From NCBI RefSeq assembly GCF_028641065.1, contig NC_073416.1:7750001-7814000 (forward strand): DNA of 64,000 bases, given 5' to 3'. The notes beneath the pieces were generated by a model, which was given only the letters and a program-made list of their open reading frames with translations, did not search any database and was not told the origin of the DNA. Position numbers and translations under genes: made by a program. The DNA is from Leucoraja erinacea (Eukaryota). Below, piece by piece: positions 1,504 to 63,530 of this stretch. Position 1 is the first letter of the stretch. Each line of letters begins with the position of its first letter.

Positions 1504-4500
1504 CTGAAGGGAGAACAAAAATAGGATGTGACATTAATGTTCTCAAAGAATAATACAACCCTCATGTAGGTATGTATTTTTGAGTGGCACTGCATAATCT
1601 ACTACAGAATAGATCAGGTAGATGCACAGAGTCTCTTGCCCAGAGTAGGGGAATTGTCAACTAGAGGATATAGGTTGAAGGTGAAGAGGGAAAGGTTTAA
1701 TAGGAATCTACCTTTTCCACACAAAGGGTGGTGGTGGGTGTATGGAACGAGCTGCCGGAGGAGGTAGCTGAGGCTGGTACCTTCTGAACCTTCTGAATTT
1801 TATAGTCAGCAGGGCACTATTCTGCATATCGCCGACTTGGACAATTTTTACATTTTTATCAAGCCAATTAATCAATCCAATTAACCTACAAACTGCACGT
1901 CTTTGGAGTGTGGGAAGAAACCGAAGATTTCAGAGAAAACCCACGCAGATCACTGGGAGAACGTACAAACTATACAGATAGCACCCGTAGTCGGGATCGA
2001 ACCCGGATCTCTGGCGCTGCATTTTGCTGTAAGGCAGCAACTCTACCGCTGTGCCACCGTGACTGCCCCAACGATTATGAAACAATTAGACAGGCACATG
2101 GATAGGACAGGTTTGGAGGGTTATGGGCCAAACGCAGGCAGGTGGGACAAGTGTAGATGGGACATGTTTGTCGGTGTGGGCAAGTTAGGTCGAAGGGCCT
2201 GTTTCAACGCTGTATCACTCTATGACTACATAGCAACACGAATGTTTTTAGCTGAAGTCTCAGCTTGATGTTGAGTTACAGTAAGTTGTTTGCTGCTGGG
2301 TGTTAACAACAGATGCCTGCATTGCGCAGGCGAGTGATGAGTTCATTCATTTCTTTGCACAGGAATGGCTCTTGTTAGACAGTCCTATATTTGGGGCTCG
2401 GAAGGATGGGGAAAAGATAAAGTAAATCTTAACCCCCCCCCCAGCAAAAGGATGTAAATATCTTTATCTTGCTTACCCACTCACAAACTGATGATCTCCT
2501 TCATAATAGTTGTTCACCTCCAAGTCATTCCCACTTTGAAACGGAGCAAGAAGATGACTTCTTGAAAGGAAGAAGATTATTAGTGAGGCAGTGTAACAAT
2601 GTAAGTATATCACATGGAAGTGAGCACTAAGATTGTAAGACGTCAACACAAAGCTTTAAAGGTAGGAAGTAAAAACCCTGGTTAATGTACAAAAATGGCA
2701 ATATGTTATAGCCTTGAACAATCAGAACTGTATGCCAGAAATACAAGGATGAGAAAAATTGCGAGGCGATTTTCAGAATATCATGAGCACATTAATGAGA
2801 GGAACATCGCACTCAAATTGAATTTTTCGTGACATTTGAACTTTTCCCAGTGTGTATGATTGCCGGCCATTGGAAGAGCTTTACTGGGACGGGCCCTCTT
2901 GCCACTGCACACTAATTAGTTTAGTTACAGCATGGAAACAGGCCCGAAAGCCCATGGCGACCATTGATCACCCATTCACCCACTTTCCCATCCTCTGGGT
3001 CGCCTGGGCGAGGGTGTCTGATGTTGTGAGACCCGAAACACCCGATGGCCCCAGGTCACATCACTGAGGATGCGTCCCAGCGCATCTAGAAGATGGATAT
3101 ATTTCACACTGAAATAAAAAGTGTTCTTAAATTTGCAAGTAGTCAATGGAAATGGATTTTAAAATTTTAATATAATGGTAAACTGGAAATAATGAGATGC
3201 AAAGAGCACCGAGGGAGGCAGAGATGCAAGGGGGGGAATCAAGTTCCACATTTAAGGCCAATTTGTAAAACGAGGCAAACTACAATTAGAACACGGTTCA
3301 CCGCAGAGAGTGTTCAGAAGCTGTTTCAACTTTAAGAAATTATGTTTCATTAAATTAATTTGATGGTTTGGCATGAGAATCTGCACAAGGCCGCTAGAAC
3401 GCCTGATGCTTTTCACTTTGTTCACAGCCTACCAGCACAAATTGGCATGGTAATTCCTGAGGTGACAAACCCAAAGCCCAGTTAAACCAGAGCCTTTGTC
3501 ACAACGTTCTCAGTCGTGCCCGATTCAAGCAGCTTGCCAGCAACGCACATCACAGTTTAGGCCACCAGAGGAGCAGTGAAGTGGGAATGGGATGAGGCTG
3601 TGGAGGTGTCAAGTGGGAGTTGGTCAGGAGTGTTGTGGAGTTGACCCACTCACAGATTCACACTGAAATAGGAATTTCACGCAAGATTGCGTGGGGCATG
3701 CAGTCCAATTTGTTACAGTACAATTACAAACAAACATCATAGTCCACTATAGACTTCTTAATTGTTAAGGGTTTGGACACGCTAGAGGCAGGAAACATGT
3801 TCCCGATGTTGGGGGAGTCCAGATCCAGGGGCCACAGTTTAAGAATAAGGAGTAAAACCATTTAGAATGGAGACGAGGAAACACTTTTTCTCACAGAGAG
3901 TGGTGCGTCTGTGGAATTCTCTGTCTGTGGAGGCCGGTTCTCTGAATGCTTTCAAATAGTGGAGTCAGGGGATATGGGGAGAAGGCAGAAGAGGGATACT
4001 GATTGTGGATGATCAGTCATGATCACATTGAATGGCTCGAAGGGCTGAATGGCCTACTCCTGCACCTATTGTCTATTGTCTATTGACTGCTAAAAGAACC
4101 ATGCTTAAATCAGGTAATTGATCAATGCTAACATTTTAGAAACCAAACTGACCCTTGAATTGTATTTGGAAATTCTTCATCCTGGTTCATGGGAATCATT
4201 ATGTGCGGAGACAATGCGATGGATGGGGTGACTGAGGCGTCTGCCCTGCAGGAAAGTAAGACCATTTGATGTTAAATATCTTCATTCAGACACTAATTTG
4301 TAATCAAAGGCTGCTGCTAAATATCGGAGTCACAAGAAACTGCAGATGGGTCAGACAGCATCTCTGGAGGGAAGGGACAAATTATGTTTTGGGTCAGGAC
4401 CCTTCTTCATCCTGATGGAGGGGAGATGAAACATTGTCGCATTTCCCTTCACTCCATCACAGATGCTGCCTGACCCGCTGAGTTCCCCCAGCAGTCTGTT

Positions 4501-7500
4501 TTTTGCTGTTAAATCTTTTTTTTGCTGAACTGTCATAAGGGATTATACATTGTACGAGGAGATATCTGCACACATACACCAGTCACTTTCTGACATTACA
4601 CTTCAAAAGTATTGTATTGGCTTCAATATGCCTTGGGATGCCTTCAAAGATATACTAAAAGGCATTACATAAATGCAAGCCACTTTTCTATCACAGATGA
4701 ATTAAACTGCTTCCACCAAAACTGATATAACTGCAATCTATTGTGTTTGGAACCTGACACATTGCTGACAAAAACTGCTCAAGTGCAATATTTCTATGGA
4801 CAAAAACAATTTTAAAACAGCTCGTCACATTATTCCTAGAAATTCTATTTGGGTGTGTTAGAATGGAACAGAAGACAAAATACAGCAAGCTGCGGGAAAA
4901 ACTACATTGGTGTGGTTGTGGTGTTGTGGGGGGGGGGGAAATATGGTTGAGAGATCATAAGGAGGGAGTTGGGAAGAAATCGCAGCGGCAAGGGTCCATC
5001 TGGAGATCAATGGTTGTTGGAGGAGCTTTTAGTTTAGTTTAGAGATACAGCGTGGAAACAGGCCCTTCGCACTGACCAGCGATCCACGCACATTAACACT
5101 ATCCTACGCACACTCGGGACAATTTTACATTTATACCAAGCCAATTAACCCACAAATCCACACAGAGTGTGGGAGGAAACAAAAGATCTCGAAGAAAACC
5201 CACGTGGTCACGGGGAGAACGTATAAACTCTGTACTGACGGCACCCGTAGTTGGGATCGAACCTGGATCTCTGGCGCTGTGAGGCAGCAACTCTACCGCT
5301 GTGTCACTGTGCAGCCCGTCTGATGTGAGAAAATGCCTGAGAATTTTTGTAAGCTTTCAAGTTTCTGTACCTTCTGCCGGACGGGAGTGGGGAGAAGAAG
5401 GAATGACCGGGGTGGGACAGGGACAAGTCTCTGATTGTGTTTGCTGCTTTTCTGAGGCAGCGTGAAGTGAAGATGGAGTCAATGGTGGGGAGTGTGGCGT
5501 GTGTGGTGGACTGGGCTACATCTACAATGGTGGGGAGTGTGGCGTGTGTGGTGGACTGGGCTACATCTACAATGGTGGGGAGTGTGGTGTGTGTGGTGGA
5601 CTGGGCTACATCTACAATGGTGGGGAGTGTGGTGTGTGGTGGACTGGGCTACATCTACAATGGTGGGGAGTGTGGTGTGTGTGATGGACTGGGCTACATC
5701 TACAATGGTGGGGGTGTGTGGTGTGTGTGATGGACTGGGCTACATCTACAATGGTGGGGAGTGTGGCGTGTGTGATGGACTGGGCTACATCTACAATGGT
5801 GGGGAGTGTGGCATGTGTGATGGACTGGGCTACATCTACAATGGTGGGGAGTGTGGCATGTGTGATGGACTGGGCTACATCTACAATGGTGGGGAGTGTG
5901 GCGTGTGTGGTGACTGGGCTACATCTACAATGGTGGGGAGTGTGGTGTGTGTGATGGACTGGGCTACATCTACAATGGTGGGGAGTGTGGTGTGTGTGAT
6001 GGACTGGGCTTCATCTACAATGGTGGGGAGTCTGGTCCGTGTGGTGGACTGGGCTACATCTACAATGGTGGGGAGTGTGGTGTGTGTGGGACTGGGCTAC
6101 ATCTACAATGGTGGGGAGTGTGGTGTGTGAGGGACTGGGCTACATCTACAATGGTGGGGAGTGTGGTGTGTGTGATCTGTGTGCTAACTCTCTGTCTTGC
6201 AAAAGTTCTCAAACTACTTCACTACCTTCTATCACCACTCTGCCGTTCCTGCTCGAGTCTAACTCATAGCTGTGAACCACAGTGGACAGTAAGACACGGC
6301 AGGTTTGTGGAAATGTGACCAGGAAGAAGACACTTCAGAGAGAGGGAGGGGATGACGATATTGTACGAGTAGGGTTTTAGAGAAGAAGAACGATCACTTA
6401 GTCCAAAAGGGGAAAATTACAATTGGGAAAGTTAACGTGTTCGTTCAAACATAATGTTGCAAAGTCAGTTGTAACAACGGCTGCACTTACTTCTCATAGT
6501 TGATGCCGCTTGGGATCTGTTGCCATCTTGGGACATCAGATGTAGTACACAGAATAGGAGGCTGGGCCACTGGTGACGGGACCATGCTTGGCACCACCAT
6601 TTGCGTTTGTTCACTGAAATAAAGCAGGTGAGTGAACGATATTTCTTCTATGAGCACGGACGTTCTTGGAGATAAGGACAGAGGGGCGAAGGCGAGGAGC
6701 TGAAGAGGGACTGATGCAGAGCAAAGAGGATAGTGTTATCTTTGCTCCCTGGGGTGATTCGGCAGTGATGAACAACTGTGGCAAAGGAGCCCGAGTCTTC
6801 CATCAAAGTTGGATTCAACACCAGATTGAATTACTGGAGATAGGTACAAAGTGCTGGAGTAGTAACTCAGTGGGTCAGGCAGCATCTCTGGAGAGAAGGA
6901 ATGGGTGACATTTCGGGCCGAGACCTTTCTGAATTGCTGGGCTGGCTTACATTTGGCAGGGTCATCAAAAGTGAAAGGGAAGGAATGGTTTAACAACTCA
7001 ACAACAATATAATTAATGACAAATTGAGGCCCAAAGGTTGTGAATTGGTGGAAGAGTTTATTCTGGGCAGAAACAGGAGTGGGATTGTCAGCCAGTGGAG
7101 GAATGTGTGTGGTGGAGACCAGGGACGTACGTGATTGGAAAAGATCTCGTCTGTGACTGAGACCACAGACAGTCTAGAGGATGAACAAGCTGGGTGTACA
7201 TATAGGGGAATCTAATGAGGGAGGTGGCAAGTTGAAAAGGTTCCCAGACCTCAGATGAATGTAACAATTAAATATTTTGGAAAGTGCAGTCACCATTTTC
7301 CAACAAATCCTTTTAGAAGGATGAGAGGGTCTCTCATTGAAACATATAAGATTGTTAAGGGTTTGGACACACTAGAGGCAGGAAACATGTTCCCGATGTT
7401 GGGGGAGTCCAGAACCAGGGGCCACACACAGTTTAAGAATAAGGGGTTGGCCATTTAGAACGGAGACGAGGAAACACTTTTTCTCACAGAGAGTGGTGAG

Positions 7501-10500
7501 TGTGTGGAATTTTCCGCCTCAGAGGGCGGTGGAGGCCGGTTCTCTGGATGCTTCAAGAGAGAGCTAGATAGGGCTCTTAAAGATAGCAGAGTCAGGGGAT
7601 ATGGGGAGAAGGCAGGAACGGGGTACTGATTGGGGATGATCAGCCATGATCACATTGAATGGTAGTGCTGGCTGGAAGGGCCAAATGGCCTCCTCCTGCA
7701 CCTATTGTCTATTGTCTAACAGTCCCATTGAAGAGGGAAGGTTCCCTGCAGGAGTGTAGAATTACGGTCTGCTCGCACTTTTACAGCTGGCAAACTCTGT
7801 TTACAAAATTTAGCAAAAACAAAAATGAGGACCAGTGTATCCGTGCTCTTACCCATTCACCGTGGTCTTTACGCCAGCGTGGAGGTAGCCATCTTTGCCC
7901 TTTGCTTCCTCTGCCGAGACAAAGAGACAAACAAGGTTGCTTGCTTATCGGGGAGACAAGGAACTGCAGATGCCGGAATCTTGAGCAAAACTCAAAGTGC
8001 TGGAGGAACTCAGCAGGTCAGACAGCATCTCTGGAGGGAATGGACAGACGATGCTTCTGGTTGGGGCCTGTTGGTCTGAAAAAAGGTCCCGGCCAACAAC
8101 ATTGTCTGGCCATCTGGCTCCACAGATGACCCGCTGAGTTCCTCCAACACTTTGTAGGCTGTTTGCTTATCGTTCTCACAATCATTTTTCAAAAATTAAA
8201 ACAAAACATGATGGGAGGGAGAACATTTACATAGACTACTTTGAATATATTTAGAAACATAGACAATAGGTGCAGGAGGAGGCCATTCGGCCCTTCGAAC
8301 CTGCACCGCCATTCAATATGATCATGGCTGATCATCCAACTCAGTATCCTGTACCTGCTTTCTCTCCATACCCCCTGATCCCTTTAGCTACAAGGGCCAC
8401 ATCTAACTCCCACTTAAATATAGCCAATGAACTGGCCTCAACTACCTTCTGTGGCAGAGAATTCCACAAATCCACCACTATGTGTGAAAAATGTTTTTCT
8501 CATCTAGGTCCTAAAAGACTTCTCCCTTATCCTTAAACAAACTGTGACCCCTTGTTCTGGACTTCCTCATAATCGGGAACAATCTTCCTGCATCTAGCCT
8601 GTCCAACCCTTTAAGAATTTTGTAAGTTTCTATAAGTTCCCCCCTCAATCTTCTAAATTCTAGCGAGTACAAGCCGAGTCTATCCAGTCTTTCTTCATAT
8701 GAAAGTCCTGACATCCCAGGAATCAGTCTGGTGAACCTTCTCTGCACTCCCTCTATGGCAAGAATGTCTTTCCTCAGATTAGGAGACCAAAACTGCACGC
8801 AATACTCCAGGTGTGGTCTCACCAAGATCCTGTATAACTGCAGTAGAACCTCCCTGCTCTTATACTCAAATCCTTTTGCTATTTAATTTGTACTAGGAAG
8901 AGAGTAAAAGCTCTTCAAATTAAATCTGAATCAAAAGAACAGGAGCAGCTGTATCATCAGTATTGTGCTGCAATTCAATCAGGCTATGACACTGTCAGAA
9001 ATAATTTTTTTGTCCATGACTGGCAGGTTTTTTGATACGTACTTGTGTAGTACTTTTTGAAAGTTTCATCTTTGCATCTCTCGGGAAACAGATAAAGCAG
9101 GCGTTCAATATCTCGGACACGATCTCCCAGCGACCGAATGGTTAAATCCTTTGTAGTGAAAGGCTGGACATTGAAGACCTGTCTGCCACCTGCAGCATGA
9201 AAAAGAGAGTCAGAACAAGGCACTCGAGAGAATTGTTGGCATTTACAGCATGGAAGATGGCCATTTGGCCCGCTGGGGAGAGAGGGAAATAGCTAATATC
9301 TCAAGATTTCATCACAACTGGCCAGTCTGACATGGACGGGAAATGCAGTTGTCAAAAATAATGGCTCGAATGTCATTTCACACCTCATGAATTCTTGGTA
9401 CATTATTTAGTTTAGTTTGGAGATAGAGATTAATTTAGAGATTTTAAATCAATTTGTTATTGAAATTCCTGCGGTTTTAATTGAATTAGAAATGTGTGCC
9501 TTAGAAGAACCAAATTAAATCAAATCACAGTGAGCTCAATGTAGTTAGTTTGGAAATATCTCTCCATGAAGGACTCAATATTACGCTTTTGGATATGTAT
9601 ATGTAAATTCTCCAATTCTAAAATATTTATTTAGTTCAGTTTAGTTTATTGTTACGTGTACCGAGGTACCGTGAAAAGCTTTTGTTGCGTGCTATCCAGT
9701 CAGCGGAAAGACAATACACGATTACAATCTGAGAGGAATTTAAGATCATCATAGTTAAAGTAAGTATTGTTGCTGTAGGAGTTGAGATTTAAGAGTGTGG
9801 AACGATTGTAATATGAGTTTGTAGATCTGCTTCTGTGACTAACACGCTAATAGCCACCTAGGTTGGACGCCATCTTGGAAGCAGGGCTTGTAGAGGATGG
9901 GTTAGATACATCGTAAAGCGCTCAAAAAAGAAAGAGAAATAATGGGTAGATATTGTGCTAGATCTCGGTCAGGGGCAGCATAAACCACCCTGGAGAGGGT
10001 ATCTGATGGCTGGTTGGGGGCTTTCCAGAACCAGTGGGCATAGCCACTGCCTCAAAAAGGCTGGCAGCATCATCAAGGACCCACAGCATCCTGGCCACAC
10101 ACTCATCTCCCCGCTACCTTCAGGTAGAAGGTACAGGAGCCTGAAGACTGCAACGATCAGGTTCAGGAATAGCTACTTCCCCACAGCCATCAGGCTATTG
10201 AACTCAACTCGGACAAAACTCTGAACACTAATAGACCATTATCTGTTTATTTGCACTTGATCAGTTTATTTATTCATGTGTGTATATATTTATACAATGG
10301 TATATGGACACACTGATCTGTTCTGTAGTCATGACTACTATATTCTGTTGTGCTGAAGCAAAGCAAGAATTTCATTGTCCTATCTGGGACTCATGACAAT
10401 AAACTCTCTTGAATCTTGAATAGCAGGGGCTGGAATACACCCTATAAAGAAGGATAATATCTCAAGGGTTTGATATTCTAAAGTTAGATGTCTGCCCTAC

Positions 10501-13500
10501 ACAAATAGTCGCCTGGGTTGGGCGCACACACTAAAAGAAACATAGTCAAAGAAAGCCTCGAAGCTTTGCAAGAGAGAACAGGGTTACCCTTCTCAGAGTC
10601 GTCAATCCATGCTATCGTAATCCCACCAATCTCAGAGTCGCTGAAGCGAAGGAGAAAGGTCCCATTCATCCGTAGGTTCAGTAGTCTGTTGGCGTACTGC
10701 TTGCTGACAAAACCAATGATCAACCTGAAAACAGAGGGTCAACACTCTTCAGCGACATTCCTTCTTCTGGGGATTAGTGTAGTAGCAAAAACCTCCTTTC
10801 CATAACAGTTTGCAACTTTGCACGTAGGTGACAACAAGAAAACATGGCCCCATGATGTCACTACTAATGATGTTACTATCTAAATGGCGTCAAGTTGGGA
10901 AAGGAAGAAGTACAATGGGATCTGGGGGTCCTGGATAGAGTGGATGTGAAGAGGATGTTTCCACTAGCGGGAGAGTTCAGGACTAGAGATCACAGACTCA
11001 GAATTAAAGGACGTTCCTTTAGGAAGGAGATGAGGAGGAATTTCTCTAGTCTGAGGGTGGTGAATCTGTGGAATTCATTGCCACACAAGGCTTTGGAAGC
11101 CGTCAATTGATATTTTGAAGGAAGAGAGATAGATTGATTGTTGATTAGTACGGGTATCAGAGGGTTATGGGGAGAAGGCAGGAGAATGGGGTTAGGAGGG
11201 AGGCCTTGATTGAATGGCAACGTAGACTGGATGGGCCGAATCTACTATCACTTATAAATTTCTTCATAATTAATTAATACATTATTTGATAATATTCACC
11301 AATATATCTGAAGGATACTTGGACATTTTTGATAAAAGGTGACTTGAAATCAATGGAAATGACTGTGCATAGGGCATCAATCAGTGAATGCGGATTAGTT
11401 TGGCAAGGAACTAAAATTCTTACCCATTATACCAGTATTCCTTCAAGTGCTTTTTCGTGAGCTCCATCACGCCATCAAACCATTGCCAGAAAGTAAAGGT
11501 TCGTCCAGGTAGGTTTTCCTGAAAAAATGTGGAAATGATTCGGTAATGCCTTGCTTGCACTAAGATTACCCGACAAATCTAAATCACCAGATACAAGATG
11601 ATTATAGATGGATGGCTGCCTGTCATTTATTGTGATCACTGCTTGTGCTTCTAGACTTCACAGTGCTGTTGGAAGAAACCACAGATGCTGGTTTAAACCA
11701 TGGATCAACTGTGCATTCACCCTATCTAGTCCCCTCATCAAGATCTGTGATCACATCGAAGATAGACACACAATGCTGGAGTAACTCAGCGGGACAGGCA
11801 GCGTCTCTGGAGAGAAGGAATGGGTGACGTTTCAGGTTGAGACCTTCTTCAGACTGGTCAGGAGAGAGGGAAACGACAAATATAGACAGTGATGTAGAGA
11901 GATATGGAATAAATGAATGAAAGATGTGCAAAAAAGTAACGATGATAAAGGAAACAGGCCATTGTTAGCCGTTTGCGAGGTGAGAACAAGAACCTGGTGC
12001 AATGGGTGGGGAAGGGATGGAGAGGGGGAATGCAGGGGTTACTTGAAGTATGCTGCTGTTTGGGAACAGATCACCTACCTGACCTCACGACAACAGAGTA
12101 CTTTTCGCATCGAGAGCGCCAAAGGGGCCGATTACACCGCGGAGTGGGAGTTTGGGCACCATTAAAGTCAATTCTCAAAGTCAGTTAGCCAAGCTAGAAA
12201 ACTTTTCCCTCGGCAGATTTTCCAACGGACCAGAAATTGCGCGGACTGTTGCTGGGCTTGTAGCTTAAATGTTTAAATGGCACAGCCACGTGACCCTGAA
12301 ATTTAAATGTAACCTCACTTCTGGGTTTAGTCAATCTTCCCATGGCTAAAGATAGGCAAGTAAAAACCTTCCTCATGGAAGGTTGGTTAAGAAGGTTCAA
12401 TGGTTGGGTATTAATGGTGGAGTAGCAAGATGGATTCAACAGTGGCTGAATGGGAGATGCCAGAGAGTAATGGTGGATGGTTGTTTGTCAGGTTGGAGGC
12501 CAGTGACGAGTGGGGTGCCACAGGGATCTGTGTTGGGTCCACTGTTGTTTGTCATGTACATCAATGATCTGGATGATGGTGTGGTAAATTGGATTAGTAA
12601 GTATGCAGATGATACTAAGATAGGTGGGGTTGCGGGTAATGAAGTAGAGTTTCAAAGTCTACAGAGAGATTTATGCCAGTTGGAAGAGTGGGCTGAAAGA
12701 TGGCAGATGGAGTTTAATGCTGATAAGTGTGAGGTGCTACATCTTGGCAGGACAAATCAAAATAGGACGTACATGGTAAATGGTAGGGAATTGAAGAATG
12801 TAGGTGAACAGAGGGATCTGGGAATAACTGTGCACAGTTCCCTGAAAGTGGAATCTCGTGTAGATAGGGTGGTAAAGAAAGCTTTTGGTGTGCTGGCCTT
12901 TATAAATCAGAGCATTGAGTATAGAAGTTGGGATGTAATGTTAAAATTGTACAAGGCATTGGTGAGGCCAATTCTGGAGTATGGTGTACAATTTTGGTCG
13001 CCTAATTATAGGAAGGATGTCAACAAAATAGAGAGAGTACAGAGGAGATTTACTAGAATGTTGTCTGGGTTTCAGCAACTAAGTTACAGAGAAAGGTTGA
13101 ACAAGTTAGGGCTTTATTCTTTGGAGCGCAGAAGGTTAAGGGGGGACTTGATAGAGGTTTTTAAAATGATGAGAGGGATAGACAGAGTTGACGTGGAAAA
13201 GCTTTTCCCACTGAGAGTAGGGAAGATTCAAACAAGGGGACATGACATGAGAATTAAGGGACTGAAGTTTAGGGGTAACATGAGGGGGAACGTCTTTACT
13301 CAGAGAGTGGTAGCTGTGTGGAATGAGCTTCCAGTGAAGGTGGTGGAGGCAGGTTCGTTTTTATCATTTAAAAATAAATTGGATAGTTATATGGACGGGA
13401 AGGGAATGGAGGGTTATGGTCTGAGCGCAGGTATATGGGACTAGGGGAGATTATGTGTTCGGCACGGACTAGAAGGGTCGAGATGGCCTGTTTCCGTGCT

Positions 13501-16500
13501 GTAATTGTTATATGGTTATATGGTTATATGACAGGGGCAGGGGACATGGGGGTCGGAGGTAAAAGTGAAACTGTGTGAGTGTGGCAGTACATTAACCAAG
13601 TCTAATCTTCACAAGAAAGAGAACGAACAATTCATTCATGCAGCAACCCACGTCATCTTCCCGGCAGCTGCTGTGCAATATATCAAGTGCACAGGCAGGC
13701 AAGCTGTTGGAATGATTATATGTAAAGTTTACCTTGTTAAACTGAGACCAAGAAACCATCCTGTTTGTGAAGTCGTCCAAGATGTAACTCTGCTCATCAA
13801 ATATCTTCTGGGCCAGGAAAACAAAGTGCTCTTTACACAAGCCCCGAGTTGATTGGACTTCTGCCATGAATTTCATGTTGAGGGTCTCACACATTTGAGA
13901 CCATGACACTCTGTCTGGGACATGGAAGGGTAATCGTTCCTGCACAAAGAGGAAAAGCAACGATGGATTTTACACAGTGTTTAAGAAGGAACTGCAGATG
14001 CTGGAGAATCGAAGGTACACAAAAAAGCTGGATAAACTCAGCGGGTGCAGCAGCATCTATGGAACGAAGGAAATAGGCAACGTTTCGGGCCGAAACCCTT
14101 CGCTCCATAGATGCTGCTGCACCCGCTGAGTTTATCCAGCTTTTTTGTGTACGATGGATTTTACATCCTTATTGGTATTTGAAGCACAGCGGGACCATAT
14201 CCAAGCTGGCACACGGACACCAAATATCGAAGCAATGGCCAGGAAAACACATCAGCAACTCGACTTCTTTAGAAGGCACAGGAGGTTTGGCATGTCCCCA
14301 ACAACTCTTACCAACTTCTGCAGATGTGTCATAGAAAGCATGGTTCGGAAACAGCAAGAAATTGCAGAGTCGTGGACACAGCCCAGACCTTCATCCAATC
14401 CAACCTCCCTTCTATCGGCTCCATCTAAACTTCACGCTGCCTTGGCAAGGCCAGCAGCATAGTCAAGGACGAGTCTCACCCCCGGTCATTCTCTCTTCTC
14501 CCCTCTCCCATCGGGCAAGAGGTACAGAAGTGTGAAAAGGCACACCTCCAGATTCAGGGACAGTTTCTTCCCGGCTGCTATCAGGCAACTGAATCATCCT
14601 CTCACCAACTAAAGAGCAGTCCTGACCTCCCATCTACCTCATTGGAGACCGTCAGACTATCTTTAAACAGACTTTACTGTACTTGACTTGCACTAAACAT
14701 TATTCCCTTTATCCTATATCTGTACACAGTGAACGGCTTGATGGTAATCATGTACAGTCTTTTCACTGACACACAGCAAAATAGTTTTTCACTGTACCTC
14801 AGTACACGTAACAATAAGAAACCTCCAGACAGGATTATACTGGATTGCAATGTGCAATAGTGTAATGATGCATGACATTGAACCAGCAATACTATTAATG
14901 TCCCAGCTTTGAATGGGACAATGTTATCAGTGCGGTACTAAATGCCTCAGATTCCTTGGCTGCGGTCATGTAATAAAGCTTAGATTTTCTTTGGAATAAC
15001 TGAGTGGCATCTCTCATAATACTCCTAATAACTATTAAAAAGGAACTTAAAACTAAAACTAAAAACTAAAGTACTGCTGAAACCAAACTCCAATCATTCC
15101 CCTTGTGCAGAATCTCGAAATAAAAGCATTCCAAGTTAAAGTAACTTACAATCTCAGAGAATGCATTGTCCCACAAGATTGTTGCAGTAGCGTTGTTGTC
15201 CTGACTACCATGGACAATCACCACGATTGGCAGCGACAAGGCCTGCAACAAAAAGAATAAGAGTGTTTGCATCATCAATATTTCACTATTGAATGATAAA
15301 CAGGTTGATGAAGAAGTGATAAAGTTCATTAAAACAAGACTAGGAGTGTGGGAGATTGTGCGGGGACTGGGACTGGGATATTTTGCACCAATTGAGTCGA
15401 GGGGGGGGTGGGGTGGGGGGAGGAGATCCTTAGTTTAATGCAGAGGTGGGGAACCTGCGGCCTTCTAGGCCATTAGGTGCGGCCTTTTGAATGAATCCGA
15501 ATTTTGTAGAACAAGTCCTTTTATTTTATTTTTATTAATATGTTTTTGTTCGCCTTTTATTATGTTAATTTTAATCTTAAAATGAACGTATTTAAAATAT
15601 GTATTTAAAAGAGTAAAAGTAGATTCAACGAAATAATCCTCCCCGACTGACGGCCACAATTAAAACATTAGTAAGTCATGAGGGCTATTTTAACACCTGT
15701 TATGCTGATGATTTAGTTCTAATGCGACTCTAGAATGTACGTCAACCTCCCACAAAAGCAGTCCCAACAAGTCATTAAAAGGCTAGTTAACTTTAGAATT
15801 AACAATTTTTAAAAATGTTCCTGAAGTTAGTACATAGTAGTTAGATTTTTACTAAATAATGTACAGTTCGAAGTATATCTAATTGAAGTATCTTGGATGC
15901 GGCCTTATTAGTTTACAGCTAACTTAATGCAGCCTCCCAACATGAAAAGGTTCCCACCCCTGGTTTAATGTATCTTTTGAAAGATGGAACCATCTGCAGT
16001 GCAGGACCCTCTCAGTACTCCACAGACATGGTCCGCGGGATTGGCTGTACCATCACTGTTCTATGACTCCTCCATGGGTAAAGGGAACTAGTTAGATGGG
16101 ATATCCTGGACAGCATGGACGAGTTGGGCCAAAGAGCCTCTTTCCATGCGGTATGACTCAATCGCTGCATTTGCTGGGCACAACAGTGTGTGATGTTGAA
16201 TTACTGTTCAGATTAAATGGCGTTGCCGTTGGGACGGAGATCTTTATTGACACAAAACAGTGTTAACAGTCCACAGACAGTCTTCAAATTTCAGTTGGGT
16301 TTAGAGGAGGGAAACAAAAACTATCCAGTTTGACACCAAAGCAAACGGTGTCACAGTAACATACGTAAGTAACTATAAAGCAGTTAGGCCAGTATTTTCA
16401 CAGTCTCAAGGTTGATCAGTTTATATGCTGGTTTATAAGAGTGCCTACAAGGACATTAAAATACCAAGAAGCTATTTAAAGATTGCCTATGTTAAAAATG

Positions 16501-37787: not shown

Positions 37788-38120
37788 TCTTTGTTTTCGA
37801 GTACCTGAAACAAATAATGCATGTTCAATATTTGATTTTACATTTATACTTTAGTAATGTGCTCATAACACATACGATTGTTATCAATAACTGAATTTAC
37901 CAATCAATTCATGATGGTGTGTGAATGAGTCACAATCCAGGATTGATCCCCAAGCCTTGCAGAATGTGCTGATTGGAACTAGAATTGGCCTCAGTAACCT
38001 TTCTTACCCTTACATTAAAAAGAGAAAAACATTTGCAATGGTTAATATTAATTTTCCAATAAGTCTGTTGTCATGCTGACATGGAGACTGAGAAAGAACA
38101 GGACTGGAATAACATGTGGA

Positions 38121-40639: not shown

Positions 40640-40920
40640 ATTTCCCTCTCCCCCATTCCCTTCCATCCACTATCTCTTCCTCCGGCTTGACAATTCTCTC
40701 CTCCCTTCCTTATCTAACTTACTCCACCCATCTGCCAATCAACCCCCCTTCGCCTGCATCCACCACTTACTCTCACCTCTCGTTACCAGCTTTCTCCCCT
40801 CTACCCCATCAGTCTGAAGAAGGGTCCTGATCCAAAATGTCATCTGTCCATTTCACTCCACAGATGCTGAGTTCCCCCAGCACTGTCTTGCTTCCAGCAT
40901 ATGCAATCTCTTGTGTCTCC
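40640..40920 (+). mobile_element. Older PLE 3' end with a decayed hammerhead core
   Basis: CT-rich UTR followed by cagtctgaagaagggtcctgatccaaaatgtc. Confidence 0.65.
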
Positions 40921-41990: not shown

Positions 41991-42195
41991 TAGGAAGCAA
42001 CCTCAGATGCTGCTTTACACTGAAGATAGACAGAAAATGCTGGAGTAACTCAGTGGGCCAGGCAGCATTTCTGGAGAGAAGAAATGGGTGACATTTTGGG
42101 TTGAGATCCTCCGACCTGAAACGTCACCCATTCCTTCTCTCCAGAGATGCTGCCTGTCCCACTGAGTTACTCCAGCATTTTATCCAGTCTATCCT
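41991..42195. mobile_element. Fold-back PLE-derived element with 15-bp TSD (ctgtatcagtcggtg)
   Basis: Direct repeats at 41976-41990 and 42196-42210; inverted arms. Confidence 0.85.
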
Positions 42196-42333
42196 CTGTA
42201 TCAGTCGGTGGTGAGCAAGGATCATCTTGCATGCCCTGTTGTAGAAGGCATCGATGGGATCCTATGTAGACTATCAGCAACATTTGGCAGAATGCCTCCT
42301 TGCCAGAACTCACCAATGAGTACCAAGACATTG

Positions 42334-42538
42334 AAGGTAGACACAATTGCTGGAGAATCTCAGCGGGTGAGGCAGCATTTATGGAGCGAAGGAGATAGGC
42401 ATCGTTTCGGGCCAAAACCCTTCTTCAGACTCAAACTTCAGGTCTGAAGAAGGGTTTCGGCCCGAAATGTTGCTTATCTCCTTTGCTCCATAAATGCTGC
42501 CGCACCAGCTGAGTTTCTCCAGCAATTTTGTCTACCTC
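42334..42538. mobile_element. Fold-back PLE-derived element with two back-to-back hammerhead motifs
   Basis: About 95-bp inverted arms around an 11-nt spacer; a CTGAAGA..GAAA core on each strand. Confidence 0.85.
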
Positions 42539-45500: not shown

Positions 45501-46760
45501 TTACTCCAGCTTTTTGTGTCTATCTTCCGTTTAAACCCGCATCTGCAGTTCCTTCGTACATAAAACTTACCACTTTAAGAGCTCTTGCGTTTTATACCTT
45601 CTTAACACAAAGAGCTGATAAACAGATGACTTATTTTACAGTGTAGGAAGGAACTGCAGATGCTGGTTTAAACCAAAGATGGACACAAAATGCTGGAGTA
45701 ACTCAGCGGGACAGGCAGCATCTCTGGAGAGAATTAATGGGTGACATTTCTGGTCGAGACCCTTCTTCAGATGCTTTTACAGCTTGCCCTCACTAGATTG
45801 GACACGGAATTATCTGACATTGTCATGCAACATTGTTTTTAACAGTGCCGTTGCCAAACCTTTGAAGCGCAGAAATGTATATCAGTTGGTTGCCTGGCAT
45901 TGCAGTCCAGTCCAGTAACTTGAATTTAAGTATGCCACACTGTCTGTTGGGGATTGTGTATGCATTAACCTTTGAAGTTCCTCATCATATCTCTCAGCAA
46001 ATAGGTTATTGCAATAGCAAAATGCGTGATAGCAACAGGAAGTCCTCAAACTAAATTAGTTACAAAAACACACATCACTTGCTATAAGCATAATATGCCA
46101 GATGGTTTAAATTAGACGTTTTGGGCAACGTGAAGTGCAATAATAGCAGAAAAATCTAATATTGATGAAATAGTCCAAGATAAATATTAATTAAATCCAG
46201 AACAGAAAAATAATATTAACTTTCCTAGTTTAAAACATGTTGATATTAATTAATCTTAGAGCATATATGATATTTGAAAACAAACATTACGAACCCTTGT
46301 ATTTCATTATTGCTTCATTTTTGTCTTGGGAATCTGTTTGATCAGAAGAGAGGAGAAAGCTTCGCTCTTACAAACAATATCCACACTACAGCGTGGAAAC
46401 AGGCCCTTCGGCTCACCGAGTCCGCATAGACCAGCAATCCCTGTATATTAACACTATCCTACACATACTAGGGACTATCTACCAAACCAATTCAACTACA
46501 AACCTGTATGTCTTTGTAGAGTGGGAGGAAAAGCGAAGATCTCGGAGGAAACCCACGTGGTCACGGGGAGAAGGTACAAACTCCGTGCCGGATCGCTGAA
46601 GAATCAAGACCACCCCAAAACAGTTAATCAACAGCAATTCAGATGCTGCTTGTGATGGTGAGCTCCAAACCATTGTTAACTCCAGCACTGAAGCAAAGGA
46701 CTGACTCAAACTAAACACCCAGAATTCACATGGTAAGCTTCTGGCAAGAAAACTAGACTT

Positions 46761-51920: not shown

Positions 51921-52942
51921 CCTATGCGCCAATGAAAATAAAATGGAATTTGCAGACATTTTCCTCCCACAGACCAACAGCTTGCCCTTTAAACAAGTTT
52001 CACCACGACTCACTTTAATATCAAATGGGTGTACATGGTCAAGGCTTTACTTAAAGAATAGCATTAAAATATGCAGTGACTTGTTCTTGAATCAGCTAAT
52101 CCATGCGTTACTGTAGAGAATATAGTATTGGTTCTGACTGGAGTTATGTTGACAAATTCACTTTTCAATTTCCCCCTTTTGAAGGGTCTCGACCTGAAAC
52201 ATCACCATTCCTTCTCTCCAGAGATGCTGCCTGTCCTACTGAGTTACTCCAGCACTTTCTGTCCATCTTCGGTGTAAACCAGCATCTGCAGTTCCTTCCT
52301 ACCCAAGGGTTTGGTTTTGTTTGATCTCTTTAGATGGATTTCTTTTTGGCAAAGTCGAGTACTGCACAGTGTACCAGTTACAGAGCCCCTCCAAGCCCAC
52401 GTTTCTCATTTGCTTTGTTGTGAAGAAGACAAAATATGAAGAGTAGGTAAATGAATTGCCCTTATACACACCACCCTGCTAAAAGCTACAATTCTATACT
52501 GGCAATTTGTCAAAATAGTCCTTCTTGGCCCAGCAATGTTATATGGAATCAAACCACAAATATGGCTGGAATTCATATGTGGAAAGCCTTTGTGGAGTAC
52601 GTGGAGAATTAGATCACACAAGCATGTACACAATGAAGCAAGACATGTGCATTTCCGTTTCCTCCATTTTGAAGATTTCTCAAAATCCAAGTCCTGATTT
52701 TTCAGAGGCGCTTCACATTAATTGGATGGATTCATCTTCAATCGATTCCAAATCATCTCCAGAATGCAAATCACCTTTAACCAAAGGGCTCAAAAGAAAG
52801 CGATGCACAAATTTGCTAACTAGCTGCAGTTTTTCCAGAATTCCTTGTTTTACTCCACAGTGATATGATATTTGATTAAATACAGTCAGACAGGTTATTC
52901 AAAAAGGATACATCAAACCTACAAAAATAAATTACTTTCCAA

Positions 52943-54092: not shown

Positions 54093-54898
54093 GTGGTAGA
54101 CAAAAGTGCTGGAGAAACTCAGCGGGTGCAGCAGCATCTATGGAGCGAGGGAAATAGGCAATGTTTCGAGCCGAAACGAGTATAGGAGCAGGGAGGTTCT
54201 ACTGCAGTTGTACAGGGTCTTGGTGAGACCACACCTGGAGTATTGAGTACAGTTTTGGTCTCCTAATCGGAGGAAGGACATCCTTGCCATAGAGGGAGTG
54301 CAGAGAAGGTTCACCAGACTGATTCCTGGGATGTCAGGGCTTTCATATGAAGAAAGACTGGATAGACTCGGCTTGTACCCGCTAGAATTTAGGAAATTGA
54401 GGGGGGATCTTATAGAAACTTACAAAATTCTTAAGGGGTTGGACAGGCTAGATGCAGGAAGATTGTTCCCAATGTTGGGGAAGTCCAGAACAAGGGGTCA
54501 CAGTTTAAGGATAAGGGGGAAATCTTTTAGGGCAGAGATGAGGAAAAAACATTTCAGACAGAGAGTGGGGAATCTGTGGAATTCTCTGCCACAGAAGGTA
54601 GTTGAGGCCAGTTAATTGGCTATATTTAAGAGCGAGTTAGATGTGGCCCTTGTGGCTAAGGGGATCAGGGGGTATGGAGAGAAGGCAGGGACGGGATCCC
54701 GAGTTGGATGATCAGCCATGATCATATTGAATGGCGGTGCAGGCTCGAAGGGCCGAATGGCCTACTCCTGCACCTAATTTCTATGTATCTATGTTGCCTA
54801 TTTCCTTCGCTCCATAGATGCTGCTGCACCCGCTGAGTTTCTCCAGCACTTTTGTCTACCTTCGATTTTCCAGCATCTGCAGTTCCTTCTTAAACACT
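54093..54898. mobile_element. Fold-back PLE-derived element split by a CR1 insertion (54178-54792, + strand)
   Basis: 13-bp TSD ttgat(g/a)caaatgt at 54080-54092 and 54899-54911; CR1 ORF 54298-54615. Confidence 0.85.
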
Positions 54899-54989: not shown

Positions 54990-55340
54990 TAAGGAAATGC
55001 AGATGCTGGTTTACAAAAAAAAAGACACAGAGTGAAAGTGCTGCAGTAACTCAGTGGCTCAGGCAGCGTCTCTGGAGAGCATGGCGAGGAGATATTTCGG
55101 GTAGTAATGTTTCGTCAGACTGATTGTGTGGGGCGGCGGACGAAAGCTGGAAGAGAGGAGGGATGGGACAAACCCGGGCAGGTAATAGGCGAGGAGGGGC
55201 TTCATAGGCAGACAGTTGACAAAATGCCAGAGATGAACAGACTAAAGGTGTGTAGTAAGGATAGAGGCGGTGTGAATTGTGAAGCCAAAGGAAGGAGTAT
55301 ATGTGGAAGGGGTGGGAGGAAAAACAAGCTTCGAATCCAG
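54990..55340 (-). mobile_element. Degenerate PLE 3' end
   Basis: Family arm, ctgacga..gaaa remnant and CT-rich UTR on the minus strand. Confidence 0.6.
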
Positions 55341-56385: not shown

Positions 56386-57391
56386 CAATTTGTTTGCAGT
56401 TTGGTTACGTAATTTTCCAACCAGGGGTTGGGTTTCAAATCTAATTTCCCATAGTCCATATCGGCAACGTCCCTCAGCACTGCCCTATCTATCATGCTAC
56501 TCACTTCCAAGGACGTCCAATGTATCATACAGAATGCAACCATGACACATCTATTCTGACTTATTTCAACGGATGTGAACAATAAACATTAAATGAGAAT
56601 GCAATCACTCAGTGGAAAGTCTCACTTGGCTTTCACTGGCCCTGTATGAATTTTCTTAAGATATTAAGACATTTTATTCATTGTTGCTCATTGATCATAT
56701 AGTAACGTTCAAAAGAAACCAATGGCACAATATTGGCTTTCAAGTTATTTGCTCCAGGTGCGTTATTATTTTCTAAGTGCTCGTCTCCTTCAAAGCAGGC
56801 TCCCAGTATCTGTTGACAGACTGGAGTAACTCAGCGGGTCAGACATGCAGCATCTCTGGAGAGAAGGGTATTCCCAGTATCCCAGCAACACACACAGCAT
56901 GGAGCAGCAGAACAAATTCCCAGGGAGTGCTGTTTCAACTGAGCCACAAGTGAAGACCAGATACACCCTGAGCTGAAACGTCACCTATCCAAGTTCTCCA
57001 GAGATAGACACAAAAAGCTGGAGTAACTCAGGGGGACGGGCAGCATCTCTGGAGAGAAGGAACGGGTGATGTTTTGGGTTGAGACCCTTCTTCTGACTTC
57101 AGAGATGCAGCCCGAGCCATTGAGTTACTCCAGCACTTTGTGTCTTTTTGGATAAACCAAAATTATGGTATTGACAAAGCCTCAGGGCAGCCAGGGAGGG
57201 ACTGGACCAAACTGAGGAATGAAAATTGAGGAAAAGATTATATGTAAAAAAACGTCAGCATTCAAATTAATCTATTCCACTCAGTACTCATCTGGTCATG
57301 CCATTGTGGTTTGCAGTCAATTAAACAAAACATCTGTGTGCATTGGAAACAGCAAATGAACCAGTACTACAATGTCAATCAAACAATCAAA

Positions 57392-57489
57392 GTCTGAAGA
57401 AGGGTTTCGGGCCCGAAACGTTGCCCATTTCCTTCACTCCATAGATGCTGCTGCACCCGCTGTGTTTCTCCAGCACTTTTGTCTACCTT
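57392..57489 (+). mobile_element. 98-bp PLE-derived insertion beginning at a hammerhead core; 8-bp flanking repeat caatcaaa
   Basis: Direct repeats at 57384-57391 and 57490-57497. Confidence 0.78.
57394..57422 (+). ncRNA. Minimal type-I hammerhead ribozyme core (CUGAAGA-A-GGGUU ucg GGCCC-GAAACGUU)
   Basis: Conserved core intact; 5-bp stem II with G-U pairs; ACGU palindromic stem III; GUU cleavage triplet. Confidence 0.62.
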
Positions 57490-59063
57490 CAATCAAATTA
57501 TGACTTGCTGCTGGTAACTATGACAGTATCTTCTCACTTCTGGGAGATCATGTGACTCATTCGTGCTTACCTTCACACACAGACGCACTCACTACAAAAA
57601 AAAAAAAAAAAAAAAATAGGTTTGTTGCCGACAGCTTTCTGCAGTCAAGCTGGATCTTGCACTTTTATCAACCCAGTATTCACTTCACCCGATACCTACT
57701 CCCAGCATCGAGCATGAACAAAATGGACCAGGCAAAGAATAAAATCAGTCTATTATACAGCACTTCATCACAGGTCAGCTCATGTCTTGTACTTAAGGCC
57801 ATCTTTGCTCACTGGAGAAGACAATTTCAGCCCACTGTATTTGCACACTCAATCTAGAAATTATCCCTCTGCTGTGATCTCCTCACATAGTCACAAACTA
57901 ACATTGTTTTCTCTCTCTCTCTCCCCTCATTGCTCAGGTATGGAGTGGTACAGTACAGCATGAGAACTGGCCCTTTGGCCCACAATGCCAAGACCAACTC
58001 TTATCTGCCCGTATACAATCTGGAGCAGAGAGGGTTTTTTCCCCCAAACGCCCCTCAGGGGGTTGCGTGATGCCAGGAGAGAATTTCCACTCTGGAAATT
58101 GAGTTCCCGATGTTGGGGGGGGAGTCGAGAACCAGGGGCCACAGTTTAAGAATAAGGAGTACGCCATTTAGAATGGAGACGAGGAGACACTTTTTCTCAC
58201 CGAGAGTGGTGAGTCTGTGGAATTCTCTGCCTCTCGGAGGCAGATTCTCTGGATGCTTTCAAGAGAGAGCTAGATAGGGCTCTTAAAGATAGCGGAGTCA
58301 GGGGATATGGGGAGAAGGCAGGAACGGGGTACTGATTGAGGATGATCAGCCATGATCACATTGAATGGCGGTGCTGGCTCAAAGGGCCAAATGGTCTACT
58401 CCTGCACCTATTGTCTAATGAGAGTCAGTGGTTGATGGATCGACCCATCAGGTCAGCCCATGCCCGTCTTGGGAGTCTCGACTTGATGGGCTGCAAGGCC
58501 CTTTAAATACCTTATCTATTAGCTACCATTATCTATTATGCATGTACAGACTCCATTTAAACATCAATATTTCCCAGTTAAGAAAATATTCATTTTTACC
58601 AAATGTTATACCAAAATAGATAACCTCATATATTTCTCCATCTGCAATGATGTTACCCACTCACTTATTTTGGCTATATCCCCTTGAAACCTCTTTATAT
58701 CCTTGTCACACCTCAAACTCCCTCTTAGTTTTATGTCATGGGAAAACTTCAGCACTGATCCCTAAAATACTCCGATATTCACAGCCTGTCAACCCGAGAA
58801 GGACTCGTTTATTCCTATTCTTTATTTTCTATCTGTTAACTAGCTCTCAGTCCATGCTAATGCGTTATATCCAAATCTACACCATACAACTTCCTTAACC
58901 TCCTTAGTGAGACCTTATCACAAGTCCTAATGTACCACATCCACTGGTTCTCCTTCATCTACTCCACCTGATCCACCATTAAAGGATGCCTATAGATTCA
59001 TCAAATGTTCTTTCCCTTTAATAAATCCATATTGTCTCTGCTTAATCTTTACAGTATGTGTTC

Positions 59064-62605: not shown

Positions 62606-63360
62606 ATAGATTATACTTCTATGAACCACACTTGCACTTTTATTTTAATCTACAATACATGGGCTATATAACGTGTAGGTTGTAATCCATATCCACATTA
62701 GACAAATGTGGCTTGACTATGGTAGAACTGTCTTACATACAGGCAAGCGGGTAGGCTCACATTTTCCCCATAGCATGAAGCTGCATCATCTGCACATGTT
62801 GAAAATAAATAATTTAGTGTCGGTTTATTTACTTTTCTTTTTCCAGACAAATTCTACAACAGCAAATTTGATTCCAGATCTTAAATCTTTGGGTAGGGAT
62901 TTGTGAATTCCACAAGGGTGAATGTCTGAAACCCAAACGCCTGTAACACAGGGGTTGCCTGCTCTGCGTTGGATAATAGAAACATAGTCAACACTTCCAA
63001 CCACAAACCAGACAAATGAAAAGTTACATCTTTTGCAAAGTTATGTGGTTTGCTGAATGCTACTTGTCATAACTTGCAGGTACCCATCCACCAGTAGTCA
63101 GAGTATGAAGCCATGTTTAAAACAGAATCCAGGTACCTAATTACAGAGCAAATTTCCCAAAGGGACTGAATAACAATGTCACATTCACAAACAAGCAGGT
63201 TAAAAACTCTGTCGTTTCCTGCAAACAGCAGTTGAAGAGTTTCTCGAGTGCATTTGCTCACACACTTTCTAACAGGGGCATGCACTCAAACGCATGCTTT
63301 ACCTTTGAAGGGGCACATGAAAGAGAAGTCTTAGAACTAAAATGACAACCATGTCATCTT

Positions 63361-63530
63361 AGATAGACACAAAATGCTGGAGTACCTCAGTGGGACAAGC
63401 AGCAGCTCTGGAGAGAAGGGATGGTAGACCGAAGGGTCTCGACCCGAAACGTCACCCGTTCCTTCTCTCCAGAGATGCTGCCTGTCCTGCTGAGTTACTC
63501 CAGTCTTTTGTGTGCAGTTCCTTCCTACAC
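63361..63530. mobile_element. Fold-back PLE-derived element
   Basis: Family arms; gggtctcgacccgaaacgtc ribozyme 3' half; imperfect TSD acaacca(t/a)gtc. Confidence 0.78.

Follow-up and report, generated by a model that had tools for sequence, protein, structure and literature searches.

The short repeats scattered through a 64,000-nt stretch of the genome of the skate Leucoraja erinacea (NC_073416.1, positions 7,750,001 to 7,814,000; hereafter the window) are probably short cDNAs copied from the terminal ribozyme and tail of Penelope-like elements (PLEs) of the Poseidon type, written into nicked DNA by the PLE enzyme, and in nearly all of them the hammerhead ribozyme motif is lost or broken. 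A search with the hammerhead-consensus repeat (nhmmer, E < 0.01) identified 50 arms in 29 clusters (Table 1), covering 4,392 of the 64,000 bases (6.9%), and returned no match in five block shuffles or in the reversed window, which upholds the first-pass annotation of more than 20 copies of one short, high-copy family in a cartilaginous fish. The family was very abundant in public reads, mostly without the upstream pLTR sequence, and accounted for 0.2–0.3% of RNA-seq reads. Scans for relatives yielded none in viral contigs or metagenome contigs and one match, taken as chance, in a bacterial collection.

Table 1. Repeat copies and associated features in the window.
Position	Strand	Feature	Details
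4312..4507	.	old head-to-head foldback	left arm includes 20 nt of the pyrimidine tract upstream
6829..6932	-	solo arm	short 3' end; begins past CUGA box
7951..8167	.	foldback, one long and one short arm	TSD 7941/8163, 10 bp exact
11667..12053	-	pLTR-length copy	putative last ORF codons and stop; ~200 nt pyrimidine-rich upstream part; insert of ~56 bp splits the tail
11823-11854	-	hammerhead of 11667..12053 copy	lacks one base of stem II
13975..14150	.	B-type foldback	15-bp TSD 13960/14151; no CUGA box
18522..18852	.	70-bp tandem units + inverted arm	units without CUGA box
20747..20966	.	foldback	ribozyme start reached by each arm; neither retains G12
31053..31322	+	two B-type solo arms	begin at GAAA box
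33398..33601	.	foldback	TSD 33387/33598, 11 bp exact, 14 with 1 mismatch
35940..36068	+	PLE GIY-YIG endonuclease C-terminal remnant	9-codon in-frame deletion; no hammerhead after
36659..36755	-	solo arm	begins 2 nt ahead of ribozyme; G12 lost
38112..38553	.	66-bp tandem units + inverted arm	units without ribozyme 5' half; 8-bp match 38103/38553
39289..39416	.	old degenerate foldback	–
39673..40137	-	composite in one 13-bp TSD 39660/40138	ribozyme 5' half, ~350 bp CR1 LINE 3' end, B-type tail beginning roughly at the predicted cut site
40635..40918	+	older pLTR-length copy	~175 nt upstream part
41991..42195	.	A-type foldback	15-bp TSD 41976/42196
42328..42540	.	B-type foldback	both arms short; intact hammerhead in right arm at 42440-42477
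45401..45563	.	foldback, left arm deleted	10-bp TSD 45391/45564
45642..45774	-	solo long arm	core complete, C11.1 mutated; TSD of 8 bp
47881..48310	.	foldback	~225 bp interrupts left arm
52180..52303	+	solo long arm	no CUGA box
54093..54898	.	composite in one 13-bp TSD 54080/54899	left arm short; then 615 bp of CR1 LINE 3' end; right arm long, its junction at the predicted cut site
54990..55325	-	older pLTR-length copy	upstream part of ~205 nt, homologous to the one in the 40635 copy
56820..57159	.	tail fragment + three-piece foldback	fragment in 10-bp TSD 56801/56872
57390..57493	+	B-type solo arm	begins at ribozyme; intact core and stem II 57392-57426; 9-bp TSD
63355..63528	.	foldback	11-bp TSD, 1 mismatch, 63345/63529

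Anatomy of the insertions

A single insertion measures about 100–130 bp and has one of two alternative 3' ends, at model positions 85–101 (21 of 50 arms) or at 117 or beyond (17 of 50). The long and short ends lie 30–35 nt apart, and this interval (the tail) together with the two end groups matches the 30–40 bp tail and the two reverse transcription (RT) start sites described for PLEs (PMC11167929; PMC8557442), which we count in favour of the PLE cDNA reading. Among the 15 foldbacks, all head-to-head, 12 paired a long with a short arm, three paired two short arms and none paired two long arms (p ~0.012, with two arm assignments changed by eye in opposite directions and the total unaltered). 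Target site duplications (TSDs) varied in length between about 8 and 15 bp; exact duplications of at least 10 bp bordered six of the 29 clusters as well as the composite insertion at 39660/40138. The three TSDs reported in the first-pass annotation were recovered, those at 13960/14151 and 41976/42196 being exact over 15 bp and that at 54080/54899 having one mismatch in 13 bp. The family thus shows the 30–40 bp tail, inverted 5'-truncated copies, partial tandems and variable TSDs that are traits of EN+ PLEs of the Poseidon type.

The hammerhead motif in the consensus and in individual copies

In its majority sequence the repeat is a minimal hammerhead of type I, with the catalytic core (CUGANGA, GAAA and NUH), an extra A, a 4-bp stem II and an ACGU palindrome, followed by about 100 nt, in agreement with the minimal hammerhead originally proposed. 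The extra A, which lies between core positions 9 and 10.1, was present in 25 of 25 copies, and the 10.1–11.1 pair was G-C in 15 of 23, with another standard pair in three. Stem III is absent; the palindromic 15.2–16.2 pair read C-G in eight copies, U-G in seven and U-A in one and was unpaired in seven (n = 23), and the palindrome duplex contributes just -1.7 kcal/mol. Non-CpG core positions were more conserved than the tail (227/238 versus 1810/2074, a contrast inflated by related copies and local-alignment edges), and the majority letters of public reads restored an intact stem II. The full core was nevertheless retained in five of 17 ribozyme-spanning arms, and the core with a full 4-bp stem II in two (2/50 of all arms). 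The designation "ribozyme-bearing" thus holds for the ancestral sequence and fails for most copies. Neither exact version of the CTGAAGA...GAAACGT(C/T) motif said to be contained in many copies occurs in the window, the best matches being one to two edits away.

The monomer minimum free energy structure of the intact copy at 42440–42477 is the hammerhead fold, z-scores from thermodynamic folding of eight sequences were near zero (-0.7 to 1.3), and cofolding of two copies produced other duplexes and not the hammerhead dimer. The covariation of stem II claimed for two subfamilies was not borne out: pairs changed on both sides numbered three against a shuffled mean of 4.0, and the score was 0.152 against 0.177 (23 window copies, giving little power), while the differences between the A and B subfamilies are one-sided (U-A to U-G and C-G to U-G). 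An Rfam covariance scan of the window, run without a positive control, gave no match at the gathering threshold and no hammerhead among 27 matches at E <= 10; the weak miRNA matches in the Rfam scans merely reflect foldbacks. Dimeric cleavage of PLE hammerheads was reportedly described by Lunse et al. in 2017. For cleavage as a cis dimer, a head-to-tail pair of intact ribozymes was sought in the window and none was found.

Relationship to Penelope-like elements

A PLE origin of the family is supported, although one of the two ties first put forward has loosened: the GIY-YIG remnant at 35943 is real and the copy at 11757–12052 does carry about 200 nt of pyrimidine-rich upstream sequence, but the remnant is not joined to the repeat in the window. 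The remnant shares 65% identity with a Leucoraja erinacea protein and weakly matches PLE proteins of sharks and rays by tblastn (E 1e-3 to 2e-4). The repeat does not follow downstream of it, and the DNA 3' of the remnant resembled the upstream part of hammerhead copies no better than shuffled sequence (53–150 of 300 shuffles scored as high). In an ENA protein (P0022), a single gene prediction and the sole record linking tail and GIY-YIG end, the tail peptide of the A type precedes a GIY-YIG 3' end that is off frame and resembles the remnant (E 1e-16 and 2e-10). A Stegostoma PLE protein (P0004) appears by eye to end in a hammerhead-frame peptide, which blastp-short did not report. No copy in the window is attached to a full PLE ORF. 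The tail was also considered as a conserved ORF start and rejected, as no frame is open in all subfamilies and 0 of 24 tail-peptide matches were in frame to six PLE proteins.

Insertion model and alternative explanations

In the insertion process that we envisage, the GIY-YIG domain would nick both target strands about 8–15 bp apart, and RT would begin within the RNA at one of two sites, giving the long or the short end. Priming of a single strand would leave a solo arm, and priming of both a head-to-head foldback joined by microhomology. Synthesis would mostly halt within or just before the ribozyme, so that most copies would never have had a whole one, and CpG decay at G12 and in the ACGU palindrome would have disabled most of the remainder. 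In favour of this process, 45 of 50 arms begin at model position 33 or upstream. The ribozyme would act in the source RNA, not in inserted copies.

The 5' ends bear on a somewhat unlikely reading, in which a dedicated non-autonomous, SINE-like PLE parasite with a short RNA starting at the ribozyme comes from ORF-less masters and is mobilised in trans. Seventeen copies reach the ribozyme start, and 13 of them end within about 12 nt upstream (by eye), a pile-up expected of such an RNA; the upstream part is absent from every B-type arm in the window, two TSD-bounded solo copies start with GG before the motif where long copies have upstream CA, and putatively non-autonomous PLEs are known (PMC8557442). 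Upstream sequence was also 60–240 fold thinner in RNA reads and, in DNA contigs, 20–330 fold thinner than the tail; subfamily divergence and an indel in the copy used as reference confound these ratios. The pile-up and the thin upstream RNA depth fit a short master RNA equally well. Against such a parasite, the 5' ends are clustered but ragged, and there is no single 5' end because 24 of 50 arms begin inside or after the ribozyme. Four of the 17 copies run on into pLTR-like pyrimidine-rich sequence, three of them for 175–205 nt, the dominant loose ends in reads continue into TCAG-type upstream sequence, and no RNA start pile-up was seen among the matches listed. Insertion of ordinary PLE RNA as short products explains the same anatomy, and the earlier designation of a non-autonomous system goes beyond what the copies show.

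The remaining alternatives concern the tandem and hairpin forms. Two short arrays of 70-bp and 66-bp units, "goes back 66" joints in RNA reads and the report of retrozymes in one chondrichthyan (bioRxiv 10.64898/2026.07.22.740005) would be in line with a non-LTR retrozyme, whose self-cleaving tandem hammerhead units are circularised and copied by rolling-circle reverse transcription. We consider this very improbable: the CUGA box is missing in every unit of both arrays, which therefore fail the retrozyme definition of two consecutive complete ribozymes, and where a locus has two arms that span the ribozyme, they lie in inverted and not in tandem orientation. An origin as MITE-like DNA foldbacks, or as a SINE unrelated to PLEs that resembles a hammerhead by chance, is scarcely credible either; many loci are hairpins, and the missing Rfam match, absent covariation and near-zero z-scores would suit it, but the arms are unequal and head-to-head, TSD lengths vary, the 5' ends are uneven, and copies also occur singly and in tandem. 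The repeat moreover has every core base together with the extra A and the palindrome, and there is a link to GIY-YIG.

Further candidates concerned the ribozyme itself. Three copies with a 4-bp stem I hinted at a splice-gated ribozyme, in which an exon would complete stem I; neither a joint of this kind nor a spliced loose end was present among the matches listed, and this candidate was rejected. Four copies have a pyrimidine tract and CAG directly 5' of the ribozyme, with 2–4 AG in 176–209 nt, as examined for a D. virilis-like 5'-UTR intron ending at helix I, and no splice joint was present in the best 15 of 330 joints in RNA reads. The cleavage site was likewise dismissed as the main stop of 5' ends (just four of 50 at positions 28–33), and so were the CR1 chimeras as proof of cleavage, since B-type copies agree with the CR1 tail repeat at 8 of 10 bases around the cut site, a resemblance that by itself can account for the position of the junction.

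Comparison with known elements

Minimal hammerheads in metazoan PLE pLTRs have as their hallmark an extra nucleotide between 9 and 10.1, and dispersed single copies were ascribed by the authors to truncated PLEs (Cervera and De la Pena 2014, PMC4209133). The skate repeats resemble these in their type I core, G10.1–C11.1 pair, palindromic 15.2–16.2, short helix I and mostly dispersed single copies; they differ in a helix II of 4–5 bp, against 7–8 bp in the Schistosoma families, and in the GUU triplet of B-type copies instead of GUC. The main text of that paper names no shark or skate. In PAc, the Poseidon element of Anolis carolinensis, the hammerhead lies about 100 nt upstream of two tail-defining RT start sites, both target strands are cut and extended, and RNA-seq gave no RNA ends at the cut site (Frangieh et al. 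2024, PMC11167929). The skate family likewise has its hammerhead about 100 nt ahead of two 3' ends, appears to have both target strands cut and extended, and showed no cut-site RNA ends among the matches listed, in libraries of a type not built to show a pile-up of RNA ends. Unlike PAc, which has an ATG at the start of stem II where the skate repeat reads AAG, it has no frame open through the tail in all subfamilies and no ORF-bearing copy in the window.

Inverted pLTRs with the tail on a single arm have been described (PMC3846280), and the skate foldbacks share with the Penelope elements of Adineta vaga and with EN+ PLE insertions in general (PMC3846280, PMC8557442) the head-to-head pLTRs, one-arm tail, 8–10 bp TSDs and unrelated sequence caught between pLTRs inside one TSD, whereas the skate insertion has shrunk to two arms of about 100 bp, in 29 clusters within 64 kb. 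Like animal non-LTR retrozymes (bioRxiv 10.64898/2026.07.22.740005), the repeats are short, non-coding, pLTR-related and hammerhead-derived, but solo arms and inverted pairs dominate in place of tandem complete ribozymes.

Implications

A bolder and distinctly unlikely interpretation holds that the family is a skate PLE-dependent SINE with an RNA of about 130 nt starting at the hammerhead and hundreds of thousands of loci, that in each foldback a dimeric enzyme on the two target strands primed a single RNA twice, at the long and at the short start, and that CR1 chimeras are template jumps at the ribozyme-cut end. If the SINE reading were true, the repeats would preserve, as fossils, traces of cleavage in vivo and of the second-strand step in PLE insertion, which is still unsolved. 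Minimal hammerheads of PLEs, and single copies of them in dispersed places, are already known; added here is a lineage, the skates and rays, with unusually dense copies (6.9% of the window, 0.2–0.3% of RNA-seq reads). The many short TSD-bounded copies would allow genome-only tests of where RT stops relative to the ribozyme and of whether inverted pairs arise from one RNA primed at two sites, and the intronic foldbacks are likely sources of dsRNA in host transcripts.

The hammerhead repeat family and its host locus

A profile search of the window, with a profile built on 20 stretches from the window itself, recovered 50 arms (single copies of the hammerhead-bearing repeat) at E<0.01, and the same search gave zero arms in five block shuffles and the reversed window. 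The arms group in 29 clusters accounting for 6.9% of the window. The repeat unit is approximately 100 or 130 bp long and contains, in order, at least two stem I bases, the CUGAAGA box, an extra A, stem II, GAAA and the ACGU palindrome. These are followed by the cut triplet, which is GUC in type A and GUU in type B, then by the stem I partner and a tail. By eye, four or more sequence types can be told apart. The first-pass annotation had drawn stem II with 5 bp and a two-base loop; it consists of 4 bp and a four-base loop, and neither of the two hammerhead motifs quoted there occurs exactly in the window. The target-site duplications (TSDs) it reported were borne out, those at 13960/14151 and 41976/42196 being 15 bp and exact and that at 54080/54899 being 13 bp with one mismatch. 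Exact flanking matches of at least 10 bp were present at 6 of the 29 clusters, compared with 48 among 1,969 random pairs, of which many likewise lay within repeats.

A domain scan covering 131 of the 237 non-repeat ORFs identified exons of a STAT-family gene across 10487-37850 on the minus strand, with a linker sequence that we take to resemble STAT6, and many repeat copies sit inside the introns of this gene.

Features of the window (window coordinates)
Feature	Position	Strand	Remarks
Tandem array	5480-6176		45-bp unit, 15.6 copies, 94% matches; no relation to the hammerhead repeat
SH2	10487-10738	-	domain match
Insert	11701-11756		~56 bp, at a short 3' end, parting tail from body
CR1-type LINE, 3' part	12356-13503		open RT frame of 362 aa (Pfam RVT_1)
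STAT_linker	13595-13969	-	domain match
STAT_bind	18993-19247	-	domain match
Assembly gap	~25470-25910		439 N
GIY-YIG remnant	35940-36068		codes for the terminal part of the PLE GIY-YIG domain
STAT_int	37629-37850	-	domain match
CR1 composite	39673-40137		CR1 LINE 3' piece inside one 13-bp TSD
Spacer	42431-42441		11 nt between two ribozyme starts
Intact hammerhead	42440-42477		all core bases and four stem II pairs
CR1 composite	54093-54898		CR1 LINE 3' piece inside one 13-bp TSD
Intact hammerhead	57392-57426		all core bases and four stem II pairs

Conservation and folding of the ribozyme

The alignment covered the whole ribozyme in 17 arms (2 of these alignments span the junction of a foldback, i.e. 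two arms head-to-head), of which five kept all core bases and two also kept the four stem II pairs. G12 belongs to a CpG and was kept by 20 arms out of 32; the palindrome, too, is a CpG. The non-CpG core was more conserved than the tail (227/238 versus 1810/2074), in a count that omits 7 of the 50 arms (six tandem units and one artefact) and a contrast inflated by kinship among copies and alignment edges. The proposed stem II covariation was not upheld: in 23 aligned copies, with one row off by a base in stem I, both-side pair changes numbered 3 versus 4.0 after shuffling (score 0.152 versus 0.177), and the differences between types A and B were one-sided, with pairing preserved. The hammerhead structure was 78% paired versus 18-41% for slid versions, an expected outcome, since the consensus had served to draw it. 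The Rfam check suggested earlier, run without a positive control, gave zero hammerhead matches, even with the threshold relaxed to E=10. Folding energies were not below those of shuffles, and the minimum-energy fold took the hammerhead shape only for the short 42440 piece. No head-to-tail pair of intact ribozymes was found at any window locus; the CUGA box is absent from both tandem arrays, and loci with two ribozymes carry them in inverted orientation.

Probable origin from Penelope-like elements

The 3' ends fall into two groups, one with 21 and the other with 17 of the 50 arms, separated by approximately 30-35 nt, and the 15 head-to-head foldbacks comprise 12 long+short, 3 short+short and no long+long combinations. 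Insertions of EN+ Penelope-like elements (PLEs) are described in PMC3846280 and PMC8557442 as having a 30-40 bp tail at one end and a partner copy that is inverted and 5'-truncated, together with partial tandems and TSDs of 8-10 bp. According to PMC11167929, the enzyme of the Anolis Poseidon element acts in vitro on both strands, cutting and extending them, and uses two internal start sites that bound the tail. The extra base, G10.1-C11.1, the palindrome and single-copy dispersal are shared with the min-HHR of Cervera and De la Pena (PMC4209133).

The GIY-YIG piece that had been placed at 35943 is a genuine PLE endonuclease end. Related proteins from whale shark, zebra shark, bamboo shark and devil ray are of PLE type, and most of them have a GIY-YIG match. 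The repeat does not follow this end in the window, and the DNA downstream of the remnant showed no match to the upstream part of long copies. The link between repeat and GIY-YIG would be supplied by P0022, a lone unnamed ENA protein prediction outside the window, in which an A-type tail peptide precedes an off-frame endonuclease end. From the two 3' ends, the foldback anatomy, the min-HHR features and this outside protein link, we conclude that the repeats are most likely PLE-derived. Leucoraja erinacea gene models were the top named matches for the remnant and the B tail, which makes a skate the most likely host. Translated PLE pieces are included in the skate gene models P0008, P0009, P0012 and P0013 (NMUR1, myocardin, NmrA-like, PLC-beta), reflecting exonisation or annotation error.

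In both CR1 composites, 2 of the 13 CR1-type 3'-end matches listed, the CR1 piece meets a B-type tail at, or at most ~7 nt from, the predicted cut site. They may be template jumps, a reading tempered by the agreement of the CR1 tail repeat with the cut-site sequence at 8 of 10 bases; capture of sequence between PLE terminal repeats is already described in PMC3846280. Many shorter CR1-like 3' ends are spread over the window.

Public reads and 5' ends

At 85% likeness to the query stretch 11481-12200, matches numbered 37,838 among 12.9 million bulk RNA reads, 36,550 among 17.6 million single-cell reads and 169,309 among 26.4 million DNA contigs. In each RNA run, fewer than 100 reads reached 99% likeness and 93-98% of the matching reads continued into unlike sequence, so the signal stems from other copies that lie within host transcripts. 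The consensus stem II was restored by the majority letters in the reads. Bulk RNA depth was ~30,000 on the tail core versus 130-490 immediately upstream of the ribozyme, where DNA contigs decreased 20-330 fold, these depths being distinct from copy numbers and skewed by subfamily divergence and an indel in the reference copy. In the single-cell RNA run X22, the upstream part (11865-11960) was 6-74 fold deeper on one strand and far above bulk RNA depth; this strand is A-rich and contains AATAAA, which makes oligo-dT priming on antisense copies the likely cause of the bias.

Among the read joints and loose ends listed for 11481-12200 there was no RNA-end pile-up, and among the 15 joints listed no splice joint; loose ends at the ribozyme led into TCAG-type upstream sequence or fold-back. 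Of the 50 5' ends in the window, 45 map to model position 33 or further upstream and only 4 close to the predicted cut (positions 28-33), position 1 including copies that extend further upstream since the model begins at the ribozyme. By eye, 13 of the 17 copies reaching the ribozyme start end within ~12 nt, and the remaining four extend upstream, three of them for 175-205 nt. The bases before the ribozyme can be read as a putative 3' splice site and also as an initiator-like motif. A 3' splice site at a comparable place in a D. virilis PLE is described in PMC4209133. The spacer at 42431-42441 could represent the final PLE endonuclease codons (a spliced junction) or a small fold-back. Part of the 11701-11756 insert is repeated elsewhere in the genome and appears CR1-like by eye.

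Proposed mechanism and relation to known elements

From the anatomy observed in the window we infer steps of nicking, priming, joining and stopping, in which a Poseidon-type enzyme would nick both target strands and cDNA synthesis would begin at either of the two sites, long or short. A single primed strand would yield a solo arm, and two would yield a foldback joined via short microhomology. Synthesis would mostly halt in the ribozyme region, either because the RNA starts there, or because of structure, or because palindromes are available for joining; the ribozyme would be active in the source RNA, weakly or protein-aided, rather than in the window copies. Priming of one RNA at both sites by a dimer would produce the long+short foldback bias, and the window data fit equally the alternative published in PMC3846280, self-priming on an antisense template.

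Full-text literature searches, judged from listings, returned no skate paper on this repeat family. A 2026 retrozyme preprint (bioRxiv 10.64898/2026.07.22.740005) covers one chondrichthyan, species unnamed, and its supplements may contain the present family. Judged against the main-text literature, the family belongs to a known class and has a known ribozyme form and a known insertion anatomy; what it adds to known PLE hammerheads is the lineage and the density.
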